Shown: in pieces, positions 11,314 to 32,253 of the stretch
Position numbering within the stretch: position 1 is the stretch's first letter
Layout: every line of letters begins with the position of its first letter
NCBI GenBank assembly: GCA_963558405.1
Contig: CAUWGC010000019.1
Location: 1 to 33,570 of the forward strand
Direction: 5' to 3'
DNA length: 33,570 nucleotides
Source of the DNA: an uncultured Clostridia bacterium
GTDB lineage: Bacteria > Bacillota > Clostridia > TANB77 > CAG-508
The notes under the pieces: model-generated
The model's database searches: none
Told to the model about the DNA's origin: nothing
What the model saw: only the letters and a program-made list of their open reading frames with translations
Made by a program: the position numbers and the translations under genes

Positions 11314-11347
11314 AAAAGGGAGTTGTTTACAAATCAACTCTCTTTTT
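11313..11347. terminator. Bidirectional terminator between tRNA-Leu and the convergent filament locus
   Basis: AAAAAGGGAGTTG...CAACTCTCTTTTT. Confidence 0.75.
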
Positions 11348-11897
11348 ATTTTATAATTTTATTATTTTTACTCTTATTCTTTTTTATTACATAAATAGTT
11401 TGAACTACTATTGAAATGATTATAAATAAAAAAATTAATTTCATTTGCATAACTTTTGCAAAAATACCTAATATTGGAATACTATTTTCTACTTTTCCTA
11501 TTATTTTTTTATTTTCAATTTCTTCAATATTATTATATAAATTATTATCTCCTTTAGTAATAAAATGTACCTTACCATCTATATTACTTATATTATTTAT
11601 TCTTTGTATTTTAATTTGATTATTATATTCATATACAATTATATCGTTTATGTAATATTTGTCATTTTTATTTGCTATAATTAAATCATTTCTTTTTATA
11701 TCAGGATACATCGATTTATCATTATATGTATGTATTGTAATATTCCCAAATCTTATATATTGTTTTTGTGTAAAAAAATTATATATATTGTATATTATAC
11801 TATATATTAGAAGAAATATTATAAATATGTAAAAAGCTATTTTAATTATTCTTTTTAGAAGCTTATATATAATTTCACTTATTCTTCTCTTCTTCAA
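11346..11897 (-). CDS. SipW-like (S26) signal peptidase paralogue, catalytic His replaced
   Basis: TM - KSMYP..NDLII - KIQRI (normally THRV) - TKGDNN..IIGKV - TM; TTG start overlapping the upstream gene. Confidence 0.8.
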   Translation of the reverse strand: MKKRRISEIIYKLLKRIIKIAFYIFIIFLLIYSIIYNIYNFFTQKQYIRFGNITIHTYNDKSMYPDIKRNDLIIANKNDKYYINDIIVYEYNNQIKIQRINNISNIDGKVHFITKGDNNLYNNIEEIENKKIIGKVENSIPILGIFAKVMQMKLIFLFIIISIVVQTIYVIKKNKSKNNKIIK

Positions 11898-12444
11898 TTT
11901 TTCTTTTCATTCTCCTTTTTTCTTTTTTTTCATTTTTTGTTATTGTATATAAGCAAATTAATAAAAAAATGAGCATCATAATTAATAGTATTATTTTATC
12001 CTGCATTTGTTTTGCTAATTTACCCAAATATGGTATTTTTATTATTACTTTTCCTTTTATATTTTCAATTCTTGTTACTTTTTTGTCTTGAGCATTGTTA
12101 TTATCGCCTTTAGTAATATATTCTTTTATTTCATCTTTTTCTACAATATCTATTACTCTATGTGTATTTGTTATTCCTTCCTGTTCAAATGTAATTATAT
12201 CGTCTTTTTCTATATTATCTTGTTTTTTTATTATAATAACATCTCCTATTTTAAGTTCTGGAAACATACTATCTGATGTTATTATATATGCTTGATATCC
12301 TAAAATACCTTTATTATTTTGAATTGAAGTAATCCATAATAAAATTACATTATACAAAATTATTATAAAAAATATTAATATTGTTACCTTTATTATTTTT
12401 GCATATTTTTTTCTTTTTACTATAGAATCTATATCGTATTTCAT
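11875..12444 (-). CDS. SipW-type signal peptidase I (S26), intact dyad
   Basis: SDSMFPELKIGDVII, THRV, TKGDNNN..D, GKV; start reassigned to ATG 12444 (MKYDID), which has RBS AGGAAGG and avoids overlap with the giant gene. Confidence 0.9.
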   Translation of the reverse strand: MKYDIDSIVKRKKYAKIIKVTILIFFIIILYNVILLWITSIQNNKGILGYQAYIITSDSMFPELKIGDVIIIKKQDNIEKDDIITFEQEGITNTHRVIDIVEKDEIKEYITKGDNNNAQDKKVTRIENIKGKVIIKIPYLGKLAKQMQDKIILLIMMLIFLLICLYTITKNEKKEKRRMKRKIEEEKNK

Positions 12445-12502
12445 TTTTACCTTCCTATGTATTAATTTATAATGTAAGACAGGTAGTTTTTCCTGTCTTA
12501 CA

Positions 12503-15500
12503 TTATTTAATAACAAAATTTTCGTAGTCTTCACCTATGTAATTTTCTTCATCATATAATTTATAAACTATTCTATATGTTCCTGTTTTCAGATTATTTT
12601 TTAATGTTAAAAATCTTATACTTTCTCCTGATGGATTTGTTGTTAATATATATTCTTTTTCATTATGTGCTTTAGTTAATAAATCTGATACATATTCAGA
12701 TAAATCTACTAACTCATATTCCATAGAGTAAATTTCTGTATACTTTCTTCTATATAAAGAAACAGTTATTTGTGGTTTTTCTAGTCCAGAAGAATATTCT
12801 AAATGTGTCATAAACGAATTATTTCCATTTAATGTATTCCCTGTTTGACTATCTATTACTTTATAATTGTCTGTTGTATATAGGTTTAATCCAAAAGATG
12901 AATTTATAATTGTTATTTTAACATTTGTTTGTGCCGATGATTCCAATCCGTAGTAAATACCATCTGGAGAACCAAATGATTCTATTTTAATTGTATATGT
13001 TCCTGTTGCCAAAGTTGAATTGTTTTCGGTATTTATCTTTATTCTTGATAAAACATTAGAAACTTTATCTGCAATTTTTATTCTAGTTGTTCCGTCTATT
13101 CTTGGATAATATTTTTGTCCATCTATTTCAAAGTTTATTCCAAATAAACTATCAAGTGCTAATTGATTACCTTTGTTGTCAAAAATGGTAATTTTGATTC
13201 CCATTTTTTGTTCAAAATATTCTGTATCATAAATTGTTTTTGAATCAACTATTTCTTGCTTAAAATCTGTTAGTACATCTAAATCTATCTTTTCTCCTAA
13301 GTATGCAGTATCTTTAATTTCTCCTGATATATCTATTTTTGAGTTCTTATTAGTATATACACTATATACCATAACATCTCTCTGAATTCCAAGTACTCCT
13401 AATAAAGTTTGATTTTTATTATTTCTAAGTTCCATTAATAAACTTTTATTTTCTACATTTTCTGTAATATTAGTTTCCGAGAATTTTATATGGAATATAA
13501 AATTTTCATATAATATATTTTGTTCTTCACTATAGTAACTATTTAGTGCTTGTGTTTCATTGTATTTTTCATCTGTACTTCCCATATAAATAAAATCTGA
13601 TAATCTATATTCAAATTTATTATTCTGTACATCTTCCGCGGTAATATCATAATAATATTCTTTTCCCTCTACCATATCTAACATTACAATTCTTGTATTT
13701 TCTGGAAAAACATAAGGCGTATTATTACTATCTCTTGAAACTAATACCCTATAATCTGTTGAAATATCATTATAATATTTACTATTTGAAAAATCATTTA
13801 AGTATAATGAATAATATGTAGAAAATGCACTTCTTCTTGTAATATTAGTTGTAGTTGATGTAAAAAGTCCATATTCTTCACCAGGTGTTATTGCGGCTTC
13901 ATAATAGTCATCTTGATGTAATGCTGTGGTCATAGTAATATTTATATCTATATATTTTATTTCATAATTTAAATCATCAACTGGTACAAGTGCTTGCAAC
14001 CTTATTTTTACATCACCTAATAATTTTTCAACAGTAATATTGGCAGAGTGATATAAGCAAAAGTTTAATGTTGGTGTAACTGTTGAATTGTCTGATTTAT
14101 AAGTACTATTTCCACTATATGATCCACCTTTTTCTGTTAAGAATATAGTTTCTCCCTGATTTTGCCATCCTCTATTTCCTGTTCCCATGTTTAGTCCAAA
14201 TACGTTATTTGCAATATCTTCATTTGGTGCTATTTTATCTATTTCATCTGGATTAACTAAACTTATTTCTTCATCTAAGCCCGCTGAAAATCCATTTAAA
14301 CTAAATATAGTATTAGGATTTGAAAATCCAACTAATGATAATTCATGTGTACCAAATGTAGCATATTTTGATGCAGATAGAGAAAATTCAAAAACTGTAA
14401 CATCCATTTTTTCTCCTACCATCCAAATATAATATACATCATTTTCTGGGGTAGTTTCTATATATTTCATTTTTATTTTTCCATCTTCATTATAATTAGT
14501 GTAAAATCCATCTATACTTGTATTATGATTTTCCATATGTTGAGCCCTAGCATATGAATTTGATGAAAATGTACCTACATTTGTTATTGTATCTCCATTT
14601 TGATAATTACTATTATATAAACCTGTACTTGTACTTGGATTCATTTTGTTTGTAAATAAACCTAAAAAAATCATTCCATGTACTTGTCCATAAGCAGTAA
14701 CTTGTTCATTTGTTGCTATATTTAAATTTTTTCCTTCTGCCATATATATTCTATTATCTACATTTCTTGTTACAGTATTAGTTTCTTCATTTATTGTAAC
14801 TTCTCCTTTTGTTTCTACATTATTTATATCAACTAAACTATCCAATTCCTTTAATAAATTTGCACCATAATTTAAATAAAATGTTGAATTATTTTTTAAT
14901 TTTACTTTGTCCACTCTACTTAAAGTAAAATATTCATCAGAATATTCATTAGTTCTATCTGTTGCTCCTGATAATGCTATAGCAGAATTACTAACAGTTA
15001 AACAATTTGTTCTTTGAATTGATATATTACTTTTAGGCTTATCTGATGTACCATAATTTTTTATATCAATATAACTTTCACCGCTTGTACTAGATGCATT
15101 TCCAGAACCAAATATACTTCCATCTATATCAAATTTTTCATGCCCTTCTCCATCTATTTGTATATTAATTCCATTTGTTACACTTATAAATGAAAAGTCA
15201 TATATCTCTGAGCCTGATTCATTAGCTTCTCCTCCTCCAAAAACAGTACCTTTTATATATACATTTCCTTTTTCTAAAGAAGGATTGTTTACTGTATTAT
15301 ATCCTACATTGGTGTTTGTTACACCATATACTACTGAAGTATTAGCTCCTCCATATACATTTCCACCAATTGATCCAGAAACAATATTTACAGTACTTAT
15401 AGATTTTTTTTCTTCTTCTGTTCCTGTTGGAGCTTTATTTCCTCCTCCAAATACGCTTTTTACAATATTAGTATCTTTACCATCAATTGTTAGATTTGTA

Positions 15501-18500
15501 TTTCCATATACTACTGCTGTACTTCCATTTCCACCAGAGTATAAACTATTTCCTAATTTTGAATTTTTAACATGCACATATGTATTTCCTTGGACTACAC
15601 CTTCATTTCCTCCACCATATACATTTTGCATTACTTCTGCATTTTCTATGGTTAGATTAGTATCGGTATTTACTCCTGCTCTATTTCCACCACCATATAC
15701 GCTTCCACTTACAGTTCCATTTATAATTACTTTTGTATAATTGGTTGTTGCTTGATCTCCTCCACCATATACATTTGTTATATTACCTGAAGTAATTGTA
15801 ACATTTGAATTTGTTGTACTACCTCCTTGATTATTTCCACCATATACATTTTGAGCTGTTCCATTATTGGTTATAACATAACTATTATCTACTGTACCCG
15901 AAGTGTTAGAACCACCAAATATGTTTTCAGCAGTTGCACCATCCAAATTGATATTTGATGTATTTACATTTGCTGCATAACCACCACCATAAATTGCTGG
16001 AATTGTATTATCAGATTTTTGTAATTTTATATTGCTGGTTTGAGAATCAGCTTTATTTCCTCCTCCATATATTGCAGTTAATATTTTTCCTCCATTTACA
16101 TTTATATTTGTTGTAATAGTGGTTCCACCCATATTGTTTCCGCCATACACATTTTCAATATTACCAGCTGTTATTTGTACATTACTTTGATTTATTATTC
16201 CATCTGTATTAGAGCCACCATATACATTTTGAGCATTTCCACCTTGACAATATATATTTGGATTTAGAACAGCTGCCATATTTCCTCCTCCAAATATATT
16301 TGGAATGAAGTTACTTGATTTAATTAAATAGATTTCTGCATTTTCTGTGTCTACTTTGTTTCCTCCTCCATATACTGCAGATGTAATCTCTCCTCCATTT
16401 ATGGTTATTTTCGCTTGTTTTGTAGTTCCACCTATATTATTTCCGCCATAAATAGTTTCTGCACTTCCTGATATAGATTCTATATTACTATTTTGTACTG
16501 TACCTGTTTGATTAGATCCACCGTATATGTTAGATGTATTTCCTCCTTTTATATATACATTAGTTGTATTAACACTAGCGGAATTTCCACCTGCATATAT
16601 TTCTTTTGTATAGCCTCCATTTATATTAATGTTTGATGTAGTTGCATTAGCTCTATCTCCACCACCAAATATTCTGTTGTTAGTACCACCATTAATAATA
16701 ATATTAGTACTTCCTTCAACAATTCCAACGTTGCCTCCTCCATATATGTCTCCAGTATGATTTCCTCCTGTTATATTTATATTAGTTGTTCCTTCTGTTT
16801 TAGCAATGTTGCCTCCTCCGTATATATTAGAGTTAACATCGCTTGCAACAACAATATTTGATATACCTTTTAATTTTGCCATATTATCAAATCCAGAAAT
16901 ACCAGCTCCTGCACCAAATACTTGTCCATTTATTTTTGGATTACCTTCTATTCTTATGTTAGAATTACCTTCCATTTGGGCTAAATTTGGTTTGTTAGAA
17001 TAATTATATCCACATCCTGAAGCATATATATTTCCATTTATTGTTGCTGAACCAGAAATTAGTATATTACTATCTCCATATAGAGAACCACCATCATTAG
17101 CTGTAACATTAGAATTTAAATACTCTGTATAACCATATCCTCCTCCATATATATTTCCTTGTACTTCTCCACCATATACATTTATATTTACAGAAGTTTC
17201 AAATGATTGCCCATAATTTTTGAACTTATCGGAAGAATTGACACTATATCCTGTTACGCCACCAGCTCCTGCTCCATAAATATTTCCAGTTATTCTGCCA
17301 GATGTTATATTTACAGTTATTGTTCCATAAAAATATGAATCACAAATATTTCCTGTCTCATTTTGGTTTACATTTCCATTATTATCAATTACTCCCATGT
17401 TTCTTCCTAAACATCCACCATATAATTCTGCTATTGTTCCTCCTGTTATATTTATGGTTGTTGTACCTAAAAATGTGTTGTTTGGATAATTCCATGGTTT
17501 AGGATCCCACCAACTTCCTTCTGTTGGTATGTTTTGTGAATCACCTATACTTCCTCCTAGCACACGTCCAACCATTCCATTTTTTATATTTTCTGTAACT
17601 CTGGAATAATTATTTCCACATGCAGAACCTCCAGTTAATAAATTAACATCATAATCATATCTTGAATGATCTGTTGTACTGTTTTTTATGTCTATAGTTA
17701 TATCAACTTTAAAACTGTCTTCCATTGATGAACCCATAAAATCATGTGAAGTTGTTTGACCTTGACCACTTGCTGTACCTGGACTTCCACCACCTATAAT
17801 TCTTGCATATGTACCACTTTTTATAAGTATTTCTGAATTGTTTCTAGGTAATTTAGTATAATTATATTGTAACCATCCACATATAATATGAAAAGCTGGT
17901 GCTCTTCCACCTAATAAACCCTGATTTTGGTTTGAATTTGCATAACTTGTCATAGTTATGCCTTCGCCCATTGTTAAACTATATCCTTGTAAATAAAAAT
18001 ATAATTGATTGTTTCCACCATAAAAATCTAAATATTGAAATGTAGTATCTGCTGTAAGATATCTATATGAATTTGTACCACCATAAAAATATAATGTTGA
18101 ATCATAATCTATTCCACCATAGATTCCTGTTATTGTTGCTTTTTTATTATATGTTGAACTTGAATTAGAGTTAAAGAAACTTGTGTTATCATATGTTCCC
18201 ATAATTACAATAATATTTTGACTTACGTCATAATTACTATTTAATTTACTATATGCTGTACTTATAGTTTCTACTGCAGTTTGAGGCGTGTATCCATCAT
18301 TATAATCATTTCCATTATTATAATCAACGTAAATAACTTTTCTGTCTCCATATATAAAAGATCCTTCAACGTTTAACGTATAATTTGAGTTATTTGTTGC
18401 AATTAATTTATATTCTTGTCCTCTTTTTAAATTTTCTAAAGTTAAAGATGTAGCATTTTCTATAGTTTCTTGTGATATTCCCGCAATGTCTACACTATAC

Positions 18501-20953
18501 CATTGATATGTATAATCCTCTAAATTTATAAATGGTAAAGCTTCTCCTGCTAGTTTTGCTGTAACTTTGTTACTTTGTTCATTTATATTAAACTCTATAT
18601 ATAACGAATATCTTTTAACTGTAAATTTTAAAATTGAATAATATCTTCCATCACCTATAATAACCGTATAATTATAATCTGTTTCCCAATCTTGTTCTTT
18701 TACAACTTGATTTTTATTTTCTAATTCACTTACTATTTTATCATCTAGATACCATGTATATGTGTATGGTCCTCCAGAATATTGGTTTTCAACTTCAATC
18801 TTATATGTAGGTTTGTTAGAGTCATTTAAATATGTTGTAAATCTTGGAATAAATGAAAATGTTCCATTTTCAAATTTCCACTTAACAAATTGATTATTAT
18901 CCAAATTATTAAAATCTGATAATAATGTAGATATATTTGATATATATATTCCTTTATTTACACCTTGTACATAACCTATTTCTCTGGTTGAATTTGACAA
19001 TCTTCTTGTAGATGTTCCAGATTCTACAGTTGCATTAAATGCAGTACCATTTGCAGAAAAACTATTATAATGACTTGTCATTGTTAATTCTCCTGCATCA
19101 TTTCCATTCCATAAAGTACTATAATTATTTCTATTATTATAACTTGTAGAAGCAATAAGTGCACCAAATATTGGACCTATAAATCCATTTGAATTTATTG
19201 TTCCAATATACAAACATCCTTTAGGCCACACTTGTTGTGAATGTATTGTAGCAATTATTCCTCCTGTATGATATTGTGCATCATATGTATTAGTTCCAAA
19301 CCAACTTCTTCTTACTTCGTTTGTTAAGTTTATATTTGTATTTACAAAACAATTTTCTATAGAATATCTACTGCTTGCACCTGGATCTGATGTACTACCT
19401 TCTGTATTCATAGCATATCCTACTAATCCACCAACAGCATATTGAAATGATTCATTATAGATTGTAACATTTCCATTATCTGTTATACTACTATTCTTTA
19501 CTATATTATTTATTATTTGCGTATTCTTATATATTGTTCCTGCTAATATTCCTACATGAATTCCTTTATTATTACTGTTTGAAGAAGTATTTCCGCTTCC
19601 TCCAATTGAAATAGTTATATTTTCTATTTCTAAGTTCTTAATAATAGATTTTGTATTTCCACCACCAATACTTCCAAAAATTCCATATGATTCTATTGTA
19701 TTTTGTGGCATTGAATTAATATTTAATCTTGCATTATATATAATGTGTCCTGCTCCATCAAATATTCCTCTAAAAGAATTAGCATTATTTCCAATTGGTG
19801 TCCATATTTTTTGATTTAAATTTATATCATTACAAAGTTGAAAATAAGTATCACTATACATATTTCCAGAATTTACTTGCTGTGCCAAATATGCCAGTTC
19901 ATCACCACTTGATATTAAATATGGTTTTTCTATTGTACCATTACCATATTTAAATCCTTGCGCTATTTCCCCTTCCCAAGGAATAGCATTAGAATTCATT
20001 TTTCCACTTGCAAAATAGTTTATAAGTTCTTTTTCTGGAGTTTCTGACAAAACCGCATATACAGAAAATTGATTTGCATTAAATTCTATATCTTCATTGC
20101 TTTTATTTACATTTTTTACTTCTTTTGCCTCTTTTTCATCTATATGCACAACTCTATATGTATCATTATCATTTTTTGAAGTTATCTTTTTTATTGTAAC
20201 CTTTATATTCTCTCCATATTTTTGAGGTTGATATTCTTGTTTTTGATGCATTATTTTGATATCATAAGCAATTTTAAAATTAATATTATTCGCCAAAAAT
20301 TGATTTATTTCTTCTTGAATATCTTCTTCTTTTACCTCTGAAATTTCAATATTAGATTCAAAAGGCATATATCCTTCTAACTGTATAATATTTTCTTTAT
20401 TTTCAATTTTTATTGTTTTATTATATAAAATTTCACCATTTTTTTCTTTTTTATCATATTTAACACTAATATCTAAATTTTTGTTTTTTAAATCTTTTTC
20501 TGTTATATAAAATTTTTTTCCTGGCTTTATTATTTCTTCTTTACTACTATTTACCGAATTTTCTATAGTTGAATTAGCATTTACACTGGATGTTTCTTGC
20601 ATGTTAGTACTATTTGCATTGTTTACATCATTTGTATTATTTACTTTGTTACTTATTGTATTATTACTTATTTCATTACTATTTTTAATATTATCACTTT
20701 TTGAACTAGTTGTTACATAATATTCTATAATTTTAGTTTCATTAATGTATTCAGGTAATTCTATATAGTATCTACCATCTTCACTTGTTGCACTCCACTC
20801 TTCTTCTATTGTATCGATAATTTTATCTTTATCTATAATTTGAGTCTTAATATTTATTATCTTACTAGCTCTTGAATTATTAAATGCTATTATTTCAATT
20901 ATTAATAATAATAATATTATTATTGAAATTATTATCCTTTTTTTATTTTTCAT
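12503..20953 (-). CDS. Giant (2816 aa) secreted beta-helical adhesin-like protein
   Basis: Signal/TM N-terminus; GLUG-type region (GNGTIEKPYLISSGDELAYLA, FRGIFDGAGH, VGGLVG); Ig-like YTYTWY/YTYQWY modules; IYVDYNNGNDYNDG beta-helix cap; about 30 (I/V)(Y/F)GGx repeats; beta-rich C-terminus with no LPXTG, SLH or TM segment. Confidence 0.85.
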   Translation of the reverse strand: MKNKKRIIISIIILLLLIIEIIAFNNSRASKIINIKTQIIDKDKIIDTIEEEWSATSEDGRYYIELPEYINETKIIEYYVTTSSKSDNIKNSNEISNNTISNKVNNTNDVNNANSTNMQETSSVNANSTIENSVNSSKEEIIKPGKKFYITEKDLKNKNLDISVKYDKKEKNGEILYNKTIKIENKENIIQLEGYMPFESNIEISEVKEEDIQEEINQFLANNINFKIAYDIKIMHQKQEYQPQKYGENIKVTIKKITSKNDNDTYRVVHIDEKEAKEVKNVNKSNEDIEFNANQFSVYAVLSETPEKELINYFASGKMNSNAIPWEGEIAQGFKYGNGTIEKPYLISSGDELAYLAQQVNSGNMYSDTYFQLCNDINLNQKIWTPIGNNANSFRGIFDGAGHIIYNARLNINSMPQNTIESYGIFGSIGGGNTKSIIKNLEIENITISIGGSGNTSSNSNNKGIHVGILAGTIYKNTQIINNIVKNSSITDNGNVTIYNESFQYAVGGLVGYAMNTEGSTSDPGASSRYSIENCFVNTNINLTNEVRRSWFGTNTYDAQYHTGGIIATIHSQQVWPKGCLYIGTINSNGFIGPIFGALIASTSYNNRNNYSTLWNGNDAGELTMTSHYNSFSANGTAFNATVESGTSTRRLSNSTREIGYVQGVNKGIYISNISTLLSDFNNLDNNQFVKWKFENGTFSFIPRFTTYLNDSNKPTYKIEVENQYSGGPYTYTWYLDDKIVSELENKNQVVKEQDWETDYNYTVIIGDGRYYSILKFTVKRYSLYIEFNINEQSNKVTAKLAGEALPFINLEDYTYQWYSVDIAGISQETIENATSLTLENLKRGQEYKLIATNNSNYTLNVEGSFIYGDRKVIYVDYNNGNDYNDGYTPQTAVETISTAYSKLNSNYDVSQNIIVIMGTYDNTSFFNSNSSSTYNKKATITGIYGGIDYDSTLYFYGGTNSYRYLTADTTFQYLDFYGGNNQLYFYLQGYSLTMGEGITMTSYANSNQNQGLLGGRAPAFHIICGWLQYNYTKLPRNNSEILIKSGTYARIIGGGSPGTASGQGQTTSHDFMGSSMEDSFKVDITIDIKNSTTDHSRYDYDVNLLTGGSACGNNYSRVTENIKNGMVGRVLGGSIGDSQNIPTEGSWWDPKPWNYPNNTFLGTTTINITGGTIAELYGGCLGRNMGVIDNNGNVNQNETGNICDSYFYGTITVNITSGRITGNIYGAGAGGVTGYSVNSSDKFKNYGQSFETSVNINVYGGEVQGNIYGGGYGYTEYLNSNVTANDGGSLYGDSNILISGSATINGNIYASGCGYNYSNKPNLAQMEGNSNIRIEGNPKINGQVFGAGAGISGFDNMAKLKGISNIVVASDVNSNIYGGGNIAKTEGTTNINITGGNHTGDIYGGGNVGIVEGSTNIIINGGTNNRIFGGGDRANATTSNININGGYTKEIYAGGNSASVNTTNVYIKGGNTSNIYGGSNQTGTVQNSNIESISGSAETIYGGNNIGGTTKQAKITINGGEITSAVYGGGNKVDTENAEIYLIKSSNFIPNIFGGGNMAAVLNPNIYCQGGNAQNVYGGSNTDGIINQSNVQITAGNIENVYGGNNMGGTTITTNINVNGGKILTAIYGGGNKADSQTSNIKLQKSDNTIPAIYGGGYAANVNTSNINLDGATAENIFGGSNTSGTVDNSYVITNNGTAQNVYGGNNQGGSTTNSNVTITSGNITNVYGGGDQATTNYTKVIINGTVSGSVYGGGNRAGVNTDTNLTIENAEVMQNVYGGGNEGVVQGNTYVHVKNSKLGNSLYSGGNGSTAVVYGNTNLTIDGKDTNIVKSVFGGGNKAPTGTEEEKKSISTVNIVSGSIGGNVYGGANTSVVYGVTNTNVGYNTVNNPSLEKGNVYIKGTVFGGGEANESGSEIYDFSFISVTNGINIQIDGEGHEKFDIDGSIFGSGNASSTSGESYIDIKNYGTSDKPKSNISIQRTNCLTVSNSAIALSGATDRTNEYSDEYFTLSRVDKVKLKNNSTFYLNYGANLLKELDSLVDINNVETKGEVTINEETNTVTRNVDNRIYMAEGKNLNIATNEQVTAYGQVHGMIFLGLFTNKMNPSTSTGLYNSNYQNGDTITNVGTFSSNSYARAQHMENHNTSIDGFYTNYNEDGKIKMKYIETTPENDVYYIWMVGEKMDVTVFEFSLSASKYATFGTHELSLVGFSNPNTIFSLNGFSAGLDEEISLVNPDEIDKIAPNEDIANNVFGLNMGTGNRGWQNQGETIFLTEKGGSYSGNSTYKSDNSTVTPTLNFCLYHSANITVEKLLGDVKIRLQALVPVDDLNYEIKYIDINITMTTALHQDDYYEAAITPGEEYGLFTSTTTNITRRSAFSTYYSLYLNDFSNSKYYNDISTDYRVLVSRDSNNTPYVFPENTRIVMLDMVEGKEYYYDITAEDVQNNKFEYRLSDFIYMGSTDEKYNETQALNSYYSEEQNILYENFIFHIKFSETNITENVENKSLLMELRNNKNQTLLGVLGIQRDVMVYSVYTNKNSKIDISGEIKDTAYLGEKIDLDVLTDFKQEIVDSKTIYDTEYFEQKMGIKITIFDNKGNQLALDSLFGINFEIDGQKYYPRIDGTTRIKIADKVSNVLSRIKINTENNSTLATGTYTIKIESFGSPDGIYYGLESSAQTNVKITIINSSFGLNLYTTDNYKVIDSQTGNTLNGNNSFMTHLEYSSGLEKPQITVSLYRRKYTEIYSMEYELVDLSEYVSDLLTKAHNEKEYILTTNPSGESIRFLTLKNNLKTGTYRIVYKLYDEENYIGEDYENFVIK
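15090..17810 (-). repeat. Array of about 30 ~25-aa (I/V)(Y/F)GG(G/S/N)N protein repeats within the giant adhesin
   Basis: Counted by eye in the translation; boundaries approximate. Confidence 0.85.
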
Positions 20954-22755: not shown

Positions 22756-23739
22756 TTATTTTGCAACAGAGAATTGTAAATTAAATGATACATCTGATCC
22801 TGAAGCATTGTTTTCACAGTCTACATCTTGTCCTTCTATCCACATATATATTCTTACTTTTGTTACACCTGCTGTTAATCTAAATAATGTTTGATTTTTA
22901 TCAATTACTTGTTTTGTAGAAATTTTTGGAGTAACTTTTTCAAAATTATCTGGATGATGTGTCTTATTTGCTTCTCCAACCTTTACATCTGTTCCTGATA
23001 TATCAGCTTTTATACCATCATAACTTAATTGTGAACCACCTGTTGTTGTAGTAGTTATACCATATGTATCTTTTGCGTGTTGTACAGCTGAAGCTGTATG
23101 AACATCATAATTTGGTTCCCAAATATATGTTGAACTTGTATCTCCTCCATCAAGCTCTTGTGCATTTTGTGAAGTACTACCAGGACCAACATTACCTTTA
23201 ACTAAAAATGCAACTCTTGCAGCATTTTGTAGTCCTCTATCTGTTGTTTCAGGTTTATATTCAACACTTGAATCTGTTGTTAATACTATATCTGTATCTT
23301 GGTCAACTTTAAGGAACACATCAAACGCAATATATTTTCCAGTTGTTCCAGCTTGTTCTGCTGCTTCTTTTGTAGCTTTTAAGATATATTCACCTTGATG
23401 AGAAGAAACTGAACCCGCAAACATATCTAGATATCCACTTGATACATTTCCTGCAGTAGATATAGTTTCTAAAATATCTGGAACTTGATTTTTGTTTGTA
23501 GCATAAGTTGCTGTAGCTCCTGTTATGTCTGTTTTTTGAAGTATTGCTTTCCAATTTGAAGCATCTGCTGAAATTTGTAAACCATTTTGTGCTTGTACAT
23601 TTACATCTATTGTACTAATTGATACAACCTTATTGGCTGTAAACCATGCATATGTTGATGAAACTAACAACACAGCTAATAATAAAAGTAATAATAATGA
23701 GTATTTTAAATTTCCTTTTCTTTTGATATTCTTATTCAT
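22756..23739 (-). CDS. TasA/CalY-like protein with SipW-type signal peptide; putative major filament subunit (327 aa)
   Basis: LLLLLLLAVLLVSSTYA/WFT cleavage motif; T/S/A/G-rich beta body; WIEGQDVDC motif; own promoter and terminator; start moved to ATG 23739 with RBS GGGAGG. Confidence 0.85.
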   Translation of the reverse strand: MNKNIKRKGNLKYSLLLLLLLAVLLVSSTYAWFTANKVVSISTIDVNVQAQNGLQISADASNWKAILQKTDITGATATYATNKNQVPDILETISTAGNVSSGYLDMFAGSVSSHQGEYILKATKEAAEQAGTTGKYIAFDVFLKVDQDTDIVLTTDSSVEYKPETTDRGLQNAARVAFLVKGNVGPGSTSQNAQELDGGDTSSTYIWEPNYDVHTASAVQHAKDTYGITTTTTGGSQLSYDGIKADISGTDVKVGEANKTHHPDNFEKVTPKISTKQVIDKNQTLFRLTAGVTKVRIYMWIEGQDVDCENNASGSDVSFNLQFSVAK

Positions 23740-23773
23740 TTTATCCTCCCGTTTTTTTATTTTTACAGACATA

Positions 23774-23802
23774 AAAATATCATATTAGATATTTATTGTC
23801 AA
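23774..23802 (-). promoter_or_regulatory. SigmaA-type promoter of the putative major pilin
   Basis: TTGACA-17 nt-TATTTT with TG extension. Confidence 0.6.
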
Positions 23803-23816
23803 TGATTTTTTCACAT

Positions 23817-23854
23817 TTGTAATATAGTTGTAATTTTCGTAATTCCTTCGTAAT
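23817..23854. promoter_or_regulatory. Four heptamer direct repeats T(T/C)GTAAT; candidate OmpR/WalR-family binding boxes
   Basis: Repeats start at 23817, 23828, 23837, 23848 (spacing 11, 9, 11), just upstream of the -35. Confidence 0.55.
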
Positions 23855-23857
23855 ATA

Positions 23858-24589
23858 TTATAAATGTTTCTCTGTTATATGCATAGTCATTTTCATTTCT
23901 CCACCAATTATTGCATCAACGCAATCTGGATCATCACCTTCTATCCAAATTACTATTGTAATTTTATCTGTTTCACCAGGCATAAAGTTAGCTCTTTCTT
24001 CTAATACCACTTCCTCATCCGAGAAAAATGGTTTAGTTCCAGTTTCTGGTTCTCCTGTGTATTCATTTATTTTTGCATATATGCTTTGTTGTTCATTTAT
24101 ATATACCATTACCCTTACAGCTTTATCTACATTTTTTATTACATCATCTATATGTATATTATACCAATAATTTATTTTTTCACTTCCCTGATTTTCTAGG
24201 TAAAAGGTATACGCAATATAATTTTCTCCGTTATGTCCACCTTCTGCTTCTTCGTTTAAATTTTTAGGTAACCAGTTAACTGATATATTATCCATAAATT
24301 CTAATTTATCTGCTTGTAATATTTGTTTTTGTTCTTTTGTTTCAGAATTTTCATACATAACAAGCCCACTTTTTTTATTTTGCTGTGGATCTAATGATAT
24401 TGTAAAATCTCCTAAATCATATACTGTTTTTAATATAAAATATATAATCACAAGAAAAATAATTGTTATTAATATTGCTACTCTTATAACTTTAATTTTT
24501 ATTTCTCTTTTTCTAATTTTATCAGATTTTAATGTTTTCTCATAATTATTAATCGATTTTTTCTCTTTTGTCTGGCTATTTGTTTTCAA
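23858..24589 (-). CDS. Membrane-anchored paralogue of the major pilin (243 aa)
   Basis: Basic N-terminus + TM without a TYA/WF-type site; shares YIAxxxxL, AxRV and WIEGDDPDC with 22756..23739; TTG start with RBS AAGGAAG. Confidence 0.75.
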   Translation of the reverse strand: MKTNSQTKEKKSINNYEKTLKSDKIRKREIKIKVIRVAILITIIFLVIIYFILKTVYDLGDFTISLDPQQNKKSGLVMYENSETKEQKQILQADKLEFMDNISVNWLPKNLNEEAEGGHNGENYIAYTFYLENQGSEKINYWYNIHIDDVIKNVDKAVRVMVYINEQQSIYAKINEYTGEPETGTKPFFSDEEVVLEERANFMPGETDKITIVIWIEGDDPDCVDAIIGGEMKMTMHITEKHL

Positions 24590-24677
24590 TTTTTTACTTC
24601 CTTTCTTTTTTATATTGATTTGATTTAATTCTTATGATATAAAATAGTAAAAGTTTTTCTATTTTAAGGAGATTATT

Positions 24678-25271
24678 ATGAAAAAATTTAAACTTTTTTT
24701 AATTATATTGTCAATACTTTTTATTTGTATTACAGTATTTCTTGTAGTTCAAACTTATTCTAAATATCTTAGTTCAGCAAATGGAGAAACTACTATTTCT
24801 ATTGCAAAGTGGAATATTTTAGTTAATAACTTATCTGTAAAAAATAATACAGATATTTCTTCTACAATTGTTCCTGTTTTTCCTGGAAATGATAACATAT
24901 CTAGCAATGTTATTGCTCCAACAGCTGAAGGATATTTTGATTTATACTTAGATTTTTCAGAAACAGATGTATCTTTTAATTATAACATTTCAAGTACTGT
25001 TTCAGACGAAAGCCCTGTTAAAGATTTTATAATAGTTGGTTACTCAATAGATAATGCACCCAGAATTGATTTTAACAATTCTCAAGAAAAAGTTATAACA
25101 GAAGATATTCTTTTATCTTCTAATATAAAAAATAGGACTATAAGAATTTTTGTTAAATGGATTGATGACGAATCTCAAACTATGTCTAATGAAGAAGATA
25201 CTTTAGCAACAAATTCTCCTTATCCTGCCATGTTTACAACAAAAATATCTTTTAATCAAATTATTGACTAA
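24678..25271 (+). CDS. TasA/CalY-like pilin-type protein with SipW-type signal peptide
   Basis: TM-QTYS/KY, AKWNILVN, IAPTAEG, TDVSFNY, VKW..DT; RBS AAGGAG; clear paralogue of 32262..32885. Confidence 0.8.
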   Translation: MKKFKLFLIILSILFICITVFLVVQTYSKYLSSANGETTISIAKWNILVNNLSVKNNTDISSTIVPVFPGNDNISSNVIAPTAEGYFDLYLDFSETDVSFNYNISSTVSDESPVKDFIIVGYSIDNAPRIDFNNSQEKVITEDILLSSNIKNRTIRIFVKWIDDESQTMSNEEDTLATNSPYPAMFTTKISFNQIID

Positions 25272-25277
25272 TTATAC

Positions 25278-25310
25278 TAAAGTGGATAATATTTTATACT
25301 ATCCACTTTA
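25278..25310. terminator. Bidirectional terminator between convergent pilin genes
   Basis: TAAAGTGGATA-11 nt-TATCCACTTTA. Confidence 0.75.
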
Positions 25311-25910
25311 ATTTTGTTGTGTTGCAATTAATACCATTTTTATTAGTAAACTAGGTTTGTCCGAATTGTTAGTATAATATTCATAAGCTTTATTTCCCCA
25401 GTTTGTATCTAATTCATCATTTCCAGATTCAAACGGCCATTCTACAATAACTTTAACTTTTCCTACCCCGTTTTCTCCAATTAAATTTGAATCATCTAAA
25501 TTTACAATTATTTTAAATGGATATTCTTGTTCTATTTTATTTTCTAAATCTTCTGATGTTGTATTTTCATCTACTTCAAATTTTTCACCTAATATTTCTA
25601 TTGATTCTATTTCATAATCTAATTTTGCAGAAACTTCTCCTTTATTACGAACATTTATCTCTTTTTCATATCTTTCCATTCCTGGATATATTTTATCTAA
25701 ATCTATTAAAATATTTGTTATTGTTTCTCCATCATCTGCCACAAATTCAATGTTCCATGATGTAACATGTGCAGTTATTGATGTAGCCACTCTTGTTGCA
25801 TATACAAACCATGCATATGTATTAAAAACAAGTAATATTGTTAAAAATATAATATGTCTTATCTTTATTTTTTTAATTATATTTAGTATTGTTCTTTTTT
25901 TTTTATATCT
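25308..25910 (-). CDS. TasA/CalY-like pilin-type reading frame with SipW-type signal peptide but no ATG/GTG/TTG ahead of it; probably the C-terminal part of a SipW-pilin fusion
   Basis: Frame open from 25910: RYKKKRTILNIIKKIKIRHIIFLTILLVFNTYA/WFVYATRVATS...; the track GTG at 25790 lies after the cleavage site and has no RBS; motifs SWNIEF, IYPG, VEWPFE..DT. Confidence 0.75.
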   Translation of the reverse strand, partial: RYKKKRTILNIIKKIKIRHIIFLTILLVFNTYAWFVYATRVATSITAHVTSWNIEFVADDGETITNILIDLDKIYPGMERYEKEINVRNKGEVSAKLDYEIESIEILGEKFEVDENTTSEDLENKIEQEYPFKIIVNLDDSNLIGENGVGKVKVIVEWPFESGNDELDTNWGNKAYEYYTNNSDKPSLLIKMVLIATQQN

Positions 25911-26521
25911 TTATTTGGCTCACTTATATTTTCTTGCTCTTCAGATTCTTTTTCTTCTTTTATTTCTTGTCTTCTAAGAATAAAATCAACAATAATTTTT
26001 GCAACAATAATAGCCATAGGTACAATAATTAAAAAATAGAATGCATATAAGTTTCTAGTTATTTTATTAATAAAACTTAAAATAACTGACTTATAAATTA
26101 CTTTTCCATATATTTGGCTGTCATCAATCTCAGGATCTGCAGTATCGTTTGCAATACCTTTTGTTATAAATTTATATTTTTCGTTTTCTTGTCTTTTTTC
26201 TATAACTTGATGTGTAATAATAATATTGTTTAAATCTCCTTTTTTAGCTTTGTATGTGATGTCATCTCCAACATTAATTTCGCTTGCATCAATTTCCTTT
26301 GAAATTATAATATCTCCAATTTCATATTTAGGAATCATACTACCTGTAACTACACTAAAAATTCTCATTCCACCTATTGTTATATTATTATTAGAAAATC
26401 TTTGTATGCAAACAACAATTAGAATAGATAATACTAACAAAAAACATATTGTATATATAATATTTCCTATAATTTTAAAAACTTTATTATTAATTATTTT
26501 TTTTAACATAACTATTATCAA
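25883..26521 (-). CDS. SipW-type signal peptidase I (S26), Ser/His present
   Basis: VTGSMIPKYEIGDII, THQV, TKGIAN..D, YGKV; two TMs; TTG start overlapping the upstream TGA; ends just after an A10 run. Confidence 0.88.
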   Translation of the reverse strand: MIIVMLKKIINNKVFKIIGNIIYTICFLLVLSILIVVCIQRFSNNNITIGGMRIFSVVTGSMIPKYEIGDIIISKEIDASEINVGDDITYKAKKGDLNNIIITHQVIEKRQENEKYKFITKGIANDTADPEIDDSQIYGKVIYKSVILSFINKITRNLYAFYFLIIVPMAIIVAKIIVDFILRRQEIKEEKESEEQENISEPNKDIKKKEQY

Positions 26522-27633
26522 TCATTTATCCTTTCTAAATATTGATCTATGTGTTTACTAAAAATCATTTGTATTTCTTGCATTGTAGCCATTTTTTTGT
26601 ATTTTATCATTGAATACTTATTTCCAATCATTTCTTTTAATTGCTCTTCTGTTAATGAACTATCCAAATCCATAATTTTATCTAACATTTGATCTACAAT
26701 ATTTTCTTTTAATTTATTTGTTATTTCTTCATTTTCTGCTTGATCCTTATTTAGAGTATTTACAACTAAGTAATTAAGCAAAAAAGTTTCATCTGCTAAT
26801 TTTTTTAAATCTCCATTGTCTAAATAATCACTTTTTTCTGATATATTTTGAGTTTTATCATCAAAATTATCCTGTATGTAATTCCATAACTTTACAGCAT
26901 ATTGAAAATTTACATTTTTTAATACCACGTTTGTCTTTTTTATTGGAGGTCTTATTAAACTTATATGTTTTTTTTCTAATATTTTATATACTTCTGAGCT
27001 AGTTAAATCATTTATTTTTTGTTCTACCCTTATAATTCTTTCCAAAATATTATCTTCACTTTTATCTTTAGTATTATTAACTTTGGTTTTAATACTAAAA
27101 CTCATTTCTATATCTTCATCAGAGTAATTAGTTTTACCATTGTACTCTATTTGCTTATCATTTTTAAATTCACATTCTTCTATTGAATTTAAGTTTTTCT
27201 TTTTTTGATTTATAAAAGCTTTCATATTTTGAATTAAAGTATATATTAATTTATTTTCATATGTATCATAACTTTCTTCTTTGTTTATGTTTAATATTTT
27301 GGATGGTCTAACATCACCAGTTTTTTTATCAATATCTTGTATCAAATTTGTATTTTTAGAAAGGTGCTTTATGCTATCAACAGTGATTTTTCTTGCTAAT
27401 TCAATTTTTACAATATCTTCTTCATTAACTATAAACCTATTGGGATTTCTAAGAATATTATCTATGTATGGTATAGTTTCTTCAAACATTCTTATCCATT
27501 CGGTATCTTTTATTGTTTTTTCATAGTCTGTAACAACTCTAACAGATGAATTTGTATTATTTACAAACTCACTTTTTAATTTTTCTGAAGTCTTATCGTA
27601 CAATTCTATTATTTTAAAATCTTCCATAATCAT
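26518..27633 (-). CDS. DUF2357 / McrC N-terminal-like protein with no recognisable PD-(D/E)xK nuclease motif
   Basis: ILRNPNRFI, ARKI..DSIKHL, PSKILN, SYDTYENKLI signature; directly downstream of an McrB-like gene. Confidence 0.7.
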   Translation of the reverse strand: MIMEDFKIIELYDKTSEKLKSEFVNNTNSSVRVVTDYEKTIKDTEWIRMFEETIPYIDNILRNPNRFIVNEEDIVKIELARKITVDSIKHLSKNTNLIQDIDKKTGDVRPSKILNINKEESYDTYENKLIYTLIQNMKAFINQKKKNLNSIEECEFKNDKQIEYNGKTNYSDEDIEMSFSIKTKVNNTKDKSEDNILERIIRVEQKINDLTSSEVYKILEKKHISLIRPPIKKTNVVLKNVNFQYAVKLWNYIQDNFDDKTQNISEKSDYLDNGDLKKLADETFLLNYLVVNTLNKDQAENEEITNKLKENIVDQMLDKIMDLDSSLTEEQLKEMIGNKYSMIKYKKMATMQEIQMIFSKHIDQYLERIND

Positions 27634-27638
27634 CTTCC

Positions 27639-29165
27639 TTATGTTAATTTTTTAAGTCTTAATAGATATTCTTTGCATTCTTTCATTTTATCTTTTCCAA
27701 ATGTAGTATCTAAAAAATCTATATAAGGATCTATTTCATCCCTTATATATGATATATTTAATTGTTCAAATTTTCTTAATATTTTTTTTGCAATAAAGTA
27801 ATCAACTCCTGCTACTTCGTCTCCACCACATGCTACAAATACTGGCACAAATTTTTTCATATGAGAAACAATACGGTTACCAAATGCTATTCTAAAATGT
27901 CTTATTACATAGTCGTCCATTTGCTCTATTTTATTTAAAGTATCATCTGATATTGGATTTTCTTCCATTGCATTTGTAAATAGCTTGTCTATATAACTAT
28001 AATTAATATCCATTGCTTCCTTTTCTATTGGTTTAAATACTTTTCCCTTGTCATTAATATCTATTGGCATTGCTCTATCATATACTTTATCTGTTACCAT
28101 AAATGTAGAATCGTCATTATTTATTGTTCCTATATACCACATATTTGCAGGAATTTTTAATTTTCCGCCTTTTATATTTTTAGGATCGCTTTTCCAACTG
28201 TTTGGTACTAATTCAATAACCCATTCTTCTTTATTAGGCATTTCCAATATAGATAGCATTTCTGCAAAATAATACTCAACACGCGAAATATTCATCTCAT
28301 CTAAAATTACTGTATATATATCATCAGTATATCCTGCCATATACATTTCTTTTAATACATCTGTTTCGTTAAATTTTTTTGTAAATTCATTAAAATATCC
28401 AAAAAGTTCGGTTCTATCTCTCCATGATGGCTGAACTGAAGCAACGCAAGAATCGTGTTTTAAAAACTTTCCCCAAGCATATGCAAGAGATGTTTTACCA
28501 GTACCAGAAATACCTTGTAATATTACTAGTTTAGTTGATGCTAAAGCTGAAATAAATAATCTCATCATATCAATTGAATAATATAATTTTAATTTTGATG
28601 CTGCAAAGTTTCTAAAATTTTCACATAATTCAGGTAATGTAAAATTATTTTCATAATTTTTAATTTTGTATTCACTAAATTCCTCATCTATAGAATTTAA
28701 TTTTGCAAATCTTATTCCTGTATTACCATCTTCTTGAGTATCTTTTGTATCATTTAAGTCTTCCTCAGCGCTTTCACCTGGTTTTAATCCAAGTTGTGAG
28801 ACTTTCATTGCTAAAATCTCATCTTTTTCCTTCATTAAATTTGCTATTTTTCCATTTAAAGTAGCTACTTCTTCTAATAATTCGTCTTGTTCTATTGCTG
28901 TTTTTCTAAATCTTAGATACTTTCTTAATAACAAATATATAAGTGCTATAACTAATACAACAAGTACAATTAAACATGTTATAGCTATTATTACTAAAAT
29001 CCACTCTGGCATAGTTAAATCATTTTTGTAATTTTGTAATATTTCTTGATATCTATTTATATTAAATATTTGTACAATTCCATCCCCAATTCCCTTTAAA
29101 ATTGTATATATTCCTAAAAAAAATTGAGAAAGAAATTCATATAAAAATCTTGTAAATGTTTCCAT
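27639..29165 (-). CDS. Membrane-anchored McrB-like AAA+ NTPase
   Basis: N-terminal hydrophobic helices + coiled coil; Walker A GISGTGKTS, VQPSWRDRTELFGY, Walker B ILDEMNISRVEYYFA, McrB signature GTINNDDST, DKVYDRA. Confidence 0.88.
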   Translation of the reverse strand: METFTRFLYEFLSQFFLGIYTILKGIGDGIVQIFNINRYQEILQNYKNDLTMPEWILVIIAITCLIVLVVLVIALIYLLLRKYLRFRKTAIEQDELLEEVATLNGKIANLMKEKDEILAMKVSQLGLKPGESAEEDLNDTKDTQEDGNTGIRFAKLNSIDEEFSEYKIKNYENNFTLPELCENFRNFAASKLKLYYSIDMMRLFISALASTKLVILQGISGTGKTSLAYAWGKFLKHDSCVASVQPSWRDRTELFGYFNEFTKKFNETDVLKEMYMAGYTDDIYTVILDEMNISRVEYYFAEMLSILEMPNKEEWVIELVPNSWKSDPKNIKGGKLKIPANMWYIGTINNDDSTFMVTDKVYDRAMPIDINDKGKVFKPIEKEAMDINYSYIDKLFTNAMEENPISDDTLNKIEQMDDYVIRHFRIAFGNRIVSHMKKFVPVFVACGGDEVAGVDYFIAKKILRKFEQLNISYIRDEIDPYIDFLDTTFGKDKMKECKEYLLRLKKLT

Positions 29166-31746: not shown

Positions 31747-32253
31747 CTATCCTCCATTTTCTTTTGGTTTGTATATAATTGCAATTCCTATTAGTATCAT
31801 AGTAATAATTATTGGTATTAATACTGATGGAGATTTTAAAACCTTTTTTAGTATTTTTATGTTTTTAAATACTTTAACAACTTTTCCTACAACATATTCC
31901 TTACCAATAGGTTCATCATTTGTATTATTAGCATCGCCTTTTGTTATAATTTTATTATTTTCAATTTCTATTACCCTATGAGTTATATAAGATTCATATT
32001 TTTTATATACAATTATATCATTTGTTTTTATTTGTTTTGTAATTTTTACAATTATAATATCTCCAATATCTAAAGTTCCTGACATACTGCCTGTTGCAAC
32101 TTCAAAAAAAGTATATCCAAATACATTTACATACTTTTTGTCTAAGATTTTTATTTGTATATTATAATATATTGTAAATATTAATATTAAAATTGCTATA
32201 CCTACAAAAATATTTAGTATAAATTCTAATATCATATTTATAACTTTTTTCAT
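31747..32253 (-). CDS. SipW-type signal peptidase I (S26), intact dyad
   Basis: ATGSMSGTLDIGDII, ITHRV, TKGDANNTND, VVGKV; two TMs. Confidence 0.9.
   Translation of the reverse strand: MKKVINMILEFILNIFVGIAILILIFTIYYNIQIKILDKKYVNVFGYTFFEVATGSMSGTLDIGDIIIVKITKQIKTNDIIVYKKYESYITHRVIEIENNKIITKGDANNTNDEPIGKEYVVGKVVKVFKNIKILKKVLKSPSVLIPIIITMILIGIAIIYKPKENGG

Follow-up and report, generated by a model that had tools for sequence, protein, structure and literature searches.

The window analyzed here is a 33,570-nucleotide stretch of DNA from an uncultured Clostridia bacterium (Bacillota, TANB77, CAG-508; GenBank assembly GCA_963558405.1, contig CAUWGC010000019.1), with a G+C content of 25.6%. On its minus strand, an open reading frame (ORF) encoding a SipW-type signal peptidase (positions 25883 to 26521) ends through a run of 10 A residues (A10), and a second open frame, which has no canonical start codon ahead of its signal peptide, lies 3′ of this tract. 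The junction between the two frames is the subject of this report, and its features are as follows.

25883 to 26521, minus strand: SipW-type (archaeal/endoplasmic reticulum [ER]-type) signal peptidase I ORF, from the ORF list, the TIGR02228 profile, and the SEC11 alignment
25886 to 25975, minus strand: Lys/Glu-rich, charged C-terminal tail of SipW after the second transmembrane helix (TM2), from hydropathy and charge counts and from tail and linker lengths in relatives
25895 to 25904, minus strand: A10 homopolymer tract, a candidate slip site (T10 on the plus strand), read as KKK both in the SipW frame and in the −1 frame
25308 to 25910, minus strand: 200-codon open frame that lacks a start and is shifted by −1 from the SipW frame, from the ORF list, 308 homologs at an E value of ≤0.001, and ratios of nonsynonymous to synonymous substitution (dN/dS) of 0.18 to 0.35
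25812 to 25874, minus strand: signal-peptide-like segment KKIKIRH-IIFLTILLVFNTYA, with N-x-Y-A-W-F nearly invariant in family alignments and a helix in the AlphaFold2 (AF2) model
25311 to 25811, minus strand: predicted mature domain of 167 amino acids (aa), modeled by AF2 as a beta-sandwich with two helices

The SipW ORF encodes 212 aa from TTG 26521 or 208 aa from ATG 26509, and it stops at TAA 25885-25883. It matches the archaeal/ER-type signal peptidase I profile TIGR02228 with 82.6 bits (cutoff, 51.85; E value, 2.7e-23), and a Pfam search of the ORF gave no match at an E value of ≤0.01. The score against the Bacillus SipW equivalog model NF046067 falls below the cutoff (68 versus 190 bits), and judged by these profiles the enzyme is SipW-like and not a Bacillus SipW equivalog. 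Over the GSM and TH motifs, the ORF can be aligned to SEC11C and SEC11A from the signal peptidase complex of eukaryotes, with GSM (residue 56) and TH (residue 99) lining up with SGSMEP and IVHRV of SEC11C (7p2q_A; E value, 7.7e-5); the GSM serine and the TH histidine are presumably the catalytic residues. The membrane helices TM1 (residues 17 to 35) and TM2 (residues 160 to 178) are followed by a 30-residue charged tail, which is predicted to be cytoplasmic and equivalent to the linker of the natural fusions described below.

Across the tract, the SipW frame reads ...GAT ATA AAA AAA AAA GAA CAA TAC TAA. The start-less frame, which is −1 (equivalently, +2) relative to SipW, is bounded by TAA 25913-25911 and TAA 25310-25308, opens at 25910, and begins RYKKKRTILNIIKKIKIRHIIFLTILLVFNTYAWF. 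Its earliest ATG, GTG, or TTG is the GTG at 25790, 3′ of the predicted cleavage site, and a reading of the sequence from 25925 to 25830 revealed no Shine-Dalgarno (SD)-like motif of the GGAG, GAGG, AGGA, or GGTG type. An original prediction, made from the sequence alone, had described a complete signal with no ATG, GTG, or TTG and no ribosome binding site ahead of it, an A10 at this position, and a −1 frame relation by which one extra A yields a fusion of ~404 aa; all of these hold on the sequence, with every coordinate correct. With one A added to the tract, the ~404-aa protein runs from TTG 26521, the window reads ...DIKKK-RTILNIIKKIKIRH, and the junction peptide of the fused product is ...DIKKKRTILNIIK..., which includes DIKKKRTILN.

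Signal cleavage is predicted, by analogy with TasA, after A33 (25814-25812), ahead of WF, which would give a mature N terminus of WFVYATR...; we take the TasA signal motif to be of the T-aromatic-A-aromatic-F type, comparable to the TYAWF of the window. In the AF2 model of a 188-aa precursor construct (predicted local distance difference test [pLDDT], 81.5), a signal helix (residues 5 to 31) precedes the beta-sandwich and its two helices.

Separate, fused, and out-of-frame forms in relatives

A scan for relatives, with one genome kept per species, yielded 80 loci (L001 to L080), all from uncultured low-G+C Bacillota-type metagenome-assembled genomes (MAGs). In 79 of the 80, sipW immediately precedes the domain gene, and the remaining locus is cut by a contig end. 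The 79 loci and the window provide 80 junctions, which occur in four states.

Separate genes with a canonical start: 70 of 80 junctions, mostly with ATG, 26 codons before the T of TYAWF
Single in-frame ORF: 4 of 80 junctions (L033, L041, L049, and L050)
Start-less, with the domain in the −1 frame: 5 of 80 junctions (window, A10; L001, A10; L002, A11; L003, A11; L043, A9)
In-frame stop and no canonical start: 1 of 80 junctions (L077)

An SD-like 4-mer is present within 20 nucleotides of the start in 64 of the 70 separate-gene loci, a count that is flattered by the script's choice of the best candidate start. None of the five start-less junctions has an ATG, GTG, or TTG ahead of the domain signal. 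In L077 (L077:2940-3075), which forms a long branch, SipW and the domain share one frame with a TAG between them, and a GAGGA-like motif stands a few bases before an in-frame ATT; ATT initiation or stop codon read-through may operate there.

Fusions are also found among database proteins. The protein collection holds four domain-containing proteins of 391 to 462 aa, and 30 of the 31 long SipW relatives (≥365 aa) are SipW-linker-signal-domain fusions; the other, P0151, has an N-terminal extension instead. The single-ORF fusions of an S26 peptidase to a pilin-type protein that had been suggested as something to look for in relatives thus exist, in 30 of 31 long SipW relatives and in 4 of 79 loci. 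Two findings had been named as jointly refuting the original prediction: a start codon of the neighboring gene's own, which orthologs do have in 70 of 79 loci, and an absence of fusions, which is not the case.

The junctions of the fused proteins match the read-through of the window residue for residue (...KKK-T/R-x-I-I/L-K...); for example, ...NEKKK-TSIIKLILKKIKLSH of P0121 aligns with ...DIKKK-RTILNIIKKIKIRH of the window. The fusions have an N terminus with a charge of +3 or +4, TM1, the catalytic domain, TM2, a charged linker of 28 to 99 aa with a positive patch just before TM3, TM3 itself, and N-[TA]-[YFL]-A-W-F (N-T-Y-A-W-F in the window). The coherent order of transmembrane segments, peptidase, and linker that had been foreseen for the fused product agrees with this hydropathy and charge analysis.

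A maximum-likelihood tree was built from SipW and the mature domain, with 110 rows that comprise 79 loci, the window, and the 30 fused proteins (L008 and P0151 were omitted). Fused and out-of-frame rows are confined to two clades. Clade A (support, 100/99) contains 29 fused rows and 1 out-of-frame row, and clade B (support, 100/95) contains 5 fused rows, 4 out-of-frame rows, among them the window, and 1 separate row. The sister group of clade B consists of 29 separate-gene loci (support, 98/94), and the fusion therefore arose either twice or once with later reversion. Between out-of-frame domain alleles, dN/dS is 0.18 to 0.35, compared with 0.12 to 0.23 for sipW, with dS partly saturated. In addition, all invariant residues of the family are kept in the start-less frame. 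These substitution patterns suggest that the start-less ORF is maintained and is not decaying, which contradicts a pseudogene.

The out-of-frame state also recurs among database gene calls. P0001, from another assembly, is a 160-aa call with five member sequences that is 99% identical to the GTG-initiated ORF of the window and starts after the cleavage site, and the ESM Atlas contains the same shortened call. Among the 120 closest clusters of near length, 111 have a normal N terminus, five (P0004, P0014, P0017, P0023, and P0040) begin inside the signal peptide, with P0014 found on 21 contigs, and three have long N termini, one of which (P0003), at 90% identity to the fused protein P0123, starts in an alternative frame.

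Some distant members of the domain family (P0197, P0203, P0207, P0238, and P0295) have their own Met and a cytoplasmic extension of 50 to 90 aa, acidic/basic in composition, ahead of the signal helix, and long cytoplasmic leaders are therefore tolerated without fusion. In P0199 and ~30 further representatives (380 to 470 aa), the domain is N-terminal (approximately residues 10 to 185) and is followed by ~200 extra C-terminal residues. Five loci (L026, L048, L057, L073, and L075) lie on contigs titled Bacteroidaceae or Muribaculaceae despite a Bacillota-type locus, and L026 and L048 are nearly identical to the Clostridia-titled contigs L016 and L047; these titles look like a binning or labeling error in the MAG records.

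Conservation and length variation of the A tract

The A10 is the sole A/T run of at least 9 nucleotides in the window, where 12.6 would be expected under a first-order Markov model (100 simulations), and the same simulations give 5.3 runs of at least 10 for the 1 observed. All nine fusion-clade junctions surveyed (the window and eight loci) carry an uninterrupted A9 to A11. In the eight fusion-clade loci (49.1 kb), eight of the nine A/T runs of ≥9 are at the junction, one per locus; in the remaining loci, none is at the junction and 11 are elsewhere. These 11 runs in 453.5 kb of non-fusion loci compare with 137 expected, a depletion of ~12-fold, whereas runs of ≥8 are depleted only 1.8-fold (183 versus 324 expected). 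The counts suggest strong selection against slippage in these low-G+C genomes, and the step in depletion at nine nucleotides agrees with the length from which slippage-prone runs were reported to be counterselected in many bacteria (PMC1088944).

Codon choice displays the same avoidance. AAA makes up 82 to 86% of Lys codons, yet of the KKK tripeptides away from the junction, only 1 of 14 in the fusion-clade loci and 2 of 123 in the other loci are encoded by AAA-AAA-AAA. At the junction, a K-run is present in all 30 fused database proteins, 18 with KKK or longer and 12 with QKKT or AKKT; in L033, QKKT is encoded as C followed by A9. The tract of the window has the sequence features of a candidate transcriptional slippage site, in that the run is at least nine nucleotides long, is conserved across species and avoided elsewhere, and is followed by an ORF in another frame.

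Within one related species, the tract differs in length. The domain of L043 (A9, out of frame) matches those of the fusions P0138, P0139, P0140, and P0147 at 100% identity, and its SipW matches theirs at 98 to 99%. The in-frame alleles of this species read NAKKTKK in proteins of 411 aa (P0138, P0139, and P0147) and NAKKKTKK in a protein of 412 aa (P0140), and three tract lengths therefore exist in one species. The term "switchable" in the original prediction gains indirect support from this polymorphism in a related species and from the retention of the tract despite its avoidance elsewhere in these genomes. The near-identical fused proteins P0134 and P0137 also differ at the junction (EEKKKKKTKS versus EEKNKKKTKS), which may mark the K-run region, at the level of these two sequences, as one prone to change.

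The secreted domain and the neighboring genes

The mature domain belongs to a family with 308 clusters at an E value of ≤0.001 in the 90% collection and with 551 representatives at ≤0.001, of which 187 are at ≤1e-30, in the 50% library. Searches of Pfam and NCBIfam assigned the domain to no family, with no Pfam match even at an E value of ≤10, and the domain has no sequence match to the TasA/camelysin Pfam family PF12389 (Peptidase_M73). In the AF2 model of the mature domain (pLDDT, 80.4; predicted template modeling score [pTM], 0.73), residues 1 to 18 have a pLDDT of <50, yet they are among the most conserved of the family; in the model, such a segment is compatible with the donor strand of a donor-strand exchange. 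When the model was searched against the folds of the Protein Data Bank (PDB), TasA (5of1_A) ranked first as a weak match (E value, 2e-3; template modeling score, 0.30), with 5of1_B and 5of2 also among the top six and nothing at an E value of ≤1e-3. A PDB sequence search with the family profile gave no TasA match and one chance-level match (E value, 2.3). Among look-alikes in the ESM Atlas, a PF12389-bearing cluster stands at rank 30 by features (score, 0.92), and PF12389 is carried by 17% of the members of a structure row whose template modeling score is 0.57. The model suggests that the domain is probably a TasA/camelysin-like matrix or fiber subunit; this is only a lead, and "pilin" is a tentative label, because the TasA fold match is weak and no Pfam or NCBIfam family applies.

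The domain gene and sipW lie in a conserved gene order, at 22756 to 29165 in the window and in the 80 loci, that comprises the genes for an AAA ATPase and a DUF2357 protein, sipW, the domain gene, and genes for 197-, 243-, and 338-aa proteins. The other features of the region are listed below.

27639 to 29165: membrane-anchored McrB-like AAA ATPase, in 77 of 80 loci, 72 to 92% identical and the best conserved gene of the set
26518 to 27633: DUF2357 protein, in 78 of 80 loci
25278 to 25310, no strand assigned: inverted repeat with 15-nucleotide arms, a 3-nucleotide loop, and 93% complementarity, which overlaps the stop codon of the domain gene and adjoins the 3′ end of the convergent gene
24678 to 25271, convergent: paralog-like gene of 197 aa, in 74 of 80 loci
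243-aa gene, in 69 of 80 loci
Gene of a 338-aa protein with a TYAWF signal, in 63 of 80 loci, a count limited by flank length

The possibility that the DUF2357 and AAA genes form an unrelated defense island was rejected because they stand beside sipW in 77 to 78 of 80 loci, and the ATPase looks like part of the system. In hhalign comparisons, the domain family has only the signal and the TYAWF motif in common with the 338-aa protein (88%), shows weak full-length similarity to the 197-aa protein (46%), and shows no similarity to the 243-aa protein. The inverted repeat is probably a terminator hairpin shared by the two convergent genes; the consensus terminator scan did not call it and called no terminator at all. 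The promoter scan was uninformative, with 22 promoter-like sites versus 16.4 expected. Three more S24/S26-like peptidase ORFs lie on the minus strand of the same 22-kb neighborhood (11346 to 11897, 11875 to 12534, and 31747 to 32253), and two of them are directly downstream of a 2,816-aa ORF (12503 to 20953) that itself has no Pfam match.

Interpretation of the junction

We favor, with moderate confidence, the reading that the window holds an out-of-frame allele of a natural sipW-substrate fusion in which the slip tract sets the amounts of polyprotein and free SipW. Synthesis of the domain would then probably depend on slippage, because the A-run leaves the second half out of frame. The main rival explanation is a homopolymer error of assembly or sequencing, under which the true tract is A11, or has some other in-frame length, and the gene is a constitutive fusion that does not switch, like the 30 fused relatives. 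In-frame fusions are frequent in the two clades, each of the five out-of-frame alleles is short by one A, as consistent homopolymer under-calling would leave it, the contig names of L002 and L003 indicate low coverage (cov_5 and cov_6; ~5 to 6×), and L043 with one more A would be the in-frame P0140 allele. Such an error is nevertheless unlikely in our judgment. Five of nine fusion-clade genomes show the out-of-frame state, the gene call from another assembly, of a strain 99% identical, is likewise shortened (P0001), shortened calls also occur in clusters of many contigs (P0014), and an error would leave unexplained an uninterrupted tract in genomes that break nearly all other KKK runs with AAG. 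Consensus errors at an A10 are uncommon in short-read assemblies. The last three of the observations listed for an error weigh against a slippage-controlled fusion, and so do several others: only the out-of-frame state is documented in the species of the window, no fused form more than 65% identical to the window SipW was found among the SipW relatives, it would be strange to make the domain from slipped transcripts only if it served as an abundant structural subunit, and the domain has neither a Pfam or NCBIfam family nor a strong TasA match. Moreover, the self-cleavage of the polyprotein is something that we infer.

The remaining explanations concern how the second frame is expressed, or whether it is expressed at all. 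With tract lengths fixed, ribosomes could slip by −1 on the A AAA AAA of a uniform A10 mRNA in a programmed, dnaX-like frameshift; every tract of at least nine A's contains an A_AAA_AAA heptamer in the SipW frame, and the substrate is in the −1 frame at all five out-of-frame loci. However, the 95 nucleotides 3′ of the tract fold no better than shuffled sequences (z = −1.15), no Rfam element is present in 25000 to 27000, no SD-like element was read just upstream of the tract, and the in-frame alleles of close relatives mean that a need for fixed recoding is not conserved. The study of tssM1 (PMC4256274) found transcriptional slippage for long runs lacking such signals. Ribosomal frameshifting appears improbable as the explanation. 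Independent translation of the domain, with no fusion made, from a near-cognate start (ATA or ATT; residues 8, 11, and 12) or through re-initiation once ribosomes have reached the SipW stop is in our estimation quite improbable. In-frame ATA and ATT codons do stand just ahead of KKIKIRH, the SipW stop is 65 nucleotides upstream of this motif, which makes coupling geometrically possible, and L077 may be a similar case. Against these points, the region from 25925 to 25830 is free of SD-like motifs, relatives with separate genes use a canonical start and mostly have the (generously counted) SD-like 4-mer, ATA is an ordinary Ile codon at 25.6% G+C, and in each of the five loci the −1 frame is free of stops from precisely the tract on and resembles the fused relatives there. 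An out-of-frame ORF without a start codon could also be a decaying pseudogene, a downstream gene killed by a frameshift. The frame is, however, intact over ~169 mature-domain codons in five species with 25 to 27% G+C, dN/dS is near the sipW value, and every invariant residue is retained; this reading is very improbable, and it was rejected on the basis of dN/dS and the intact ORFs.

Under the favored reading of a slippage-controlled sipW-substrate fusion, SipW and the signal of a neighboring secreted protein would have merged into one frame via a cytoplasmic Lys/Glu linker, with A9 to A11 at the joint. At the DNA level, the tract length would shift between strains and move the substrate half into and out of frame, as in the species of L043 and presumably in that of the window. 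At the RNA level, by analogy with runs of at least nine A's in other bacteria, polymerase slippage on the 10 A's would add or drop A's, so that A10 transcripts would give free SipW ending in ...KKKEQY and a minority of A11 transcripts would give the ~404-aa SipW-linker-signal-domain polyprotein. In the membrane, TM1 of this polyprotein would run in-to-out, TM2 out-to-in, and the signal, as TM3, again in-to-out, which would bring TYA|WF next to the active site of SipW at the outer face. SipW may then cut at TYA|WF and free the beta-sandwich domain, with the signal peptide staying on SipW. A more tentative possibility is that A9 to A11 is a two-output device, in which tract length sets the ratio of free SipW to polyprotein, a ratio that DNA slippage would make heritable and RNA slippage noisy, that processing occurs in cis with the signal peptide of the passenger kept as a third membrane helix, and that the passenger is a TasA-like donor-strand protein that primes or caps a surface fiber assembled from the remaining SipW-type proteins encoded at this locus.

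Signal peptidases and their substrates are ordinarily separate proteins. As in tapA-sipW-tasA of Bacillus subtilis and in sipW-bsaA and sipW-tasA-calY of clostridia and the B. cereus group, the window has a dedicated ER/archaeal-type peptidase beside probable beta-sandwich substrates, and TasA is the top, although weak, PDB fold match of its domain. A role of SipW for TasA and TapA is described in PMC9245690. Unlike in the tapA-sipW-tasA system, the enzyme and substrate here share a single ORF in 30 clusters or are parts of one that a poly(A) tract interrupts, the domain does not match PF12389 and SipW falls below the Bacillus equivalog cutoff, and the locus adds the conserved membrane AAA ATPase and the DUF2357 protein.

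Runs of A have known roles in slippage. Counterselection of A/T runs begins at approximately nine nucleotides, and insertion sequence elements exploit them to fuse ORFs (PMC1088944). The same paper describes dnaX of Thermus thermophilus, a comparable case with a mixed mRNA pool. In Citrobacter rodentium tssM1, an A11 before a stop gives mRNAs with 10 to 15 A's and two protein forms, both of which are needed (PMC4256274). The window resembles tssM1 in having 10 to 11 A's just before a stop, the remainder in another frame, two products, which are here proposed, and no ribosomal frameshift stimulators. In tssM1, however, slippage was proven, whereas we infer it here, and the halves of tssM1 are domains of one protein, whereas the second half here is the enzyme's own substrate with a signal peptide. 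For conserved poly(A) frameshifts of Blochmannia, transcriptional slippage was proposed as a correction (PMC3017870). The Blochmannia and Buchnera cases share with the window an AT-rich small genome, a conserved homopolymer indel, an undecayed ORF, and a proposed mixed mRNA pool; those frameshifts are scattered and seemingly tolerated, whereas here runs of ≥9 are purged and one is kept at the fusion joint in two clades. As in simple-sequence contingency loci, a coding homopolymer would govern a surface or secreted protein, and its length differs among assemblies of the same species (that of L043). Unlike in those loci, the tract lies away from the 5′ end of the gene that would be switched, at the joint with an upstream enzyme that would be expressed in either phase, and switching is here proposed.

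A full-text literature search, at the level of result overviews, found no description of a SipW-substrate fusion or of sipW phase variation. What is new is that the enzyme and its substrate occur as one gene and that a slip-prone tract is conserved exactly at their joint. Gene callers clip the second half, giving calls of 160 to 180 aa that start inside or after the signal, and this hides a conserved secreted protein. A peptidase fused to the signal peptide of its own substrate would provide a minimal natural system for cis cleavage of signal peptides and for the specificity of SipW. In-frame and out-of-frame alleles are about equally common, which makes the junction a clean case for transcriptional slippage versus DNA phase variation in uncultured gut Bacillota. 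If the proposed two-output mechanism is true, fiber display would be phase variable in these uncultured gut bacteria.

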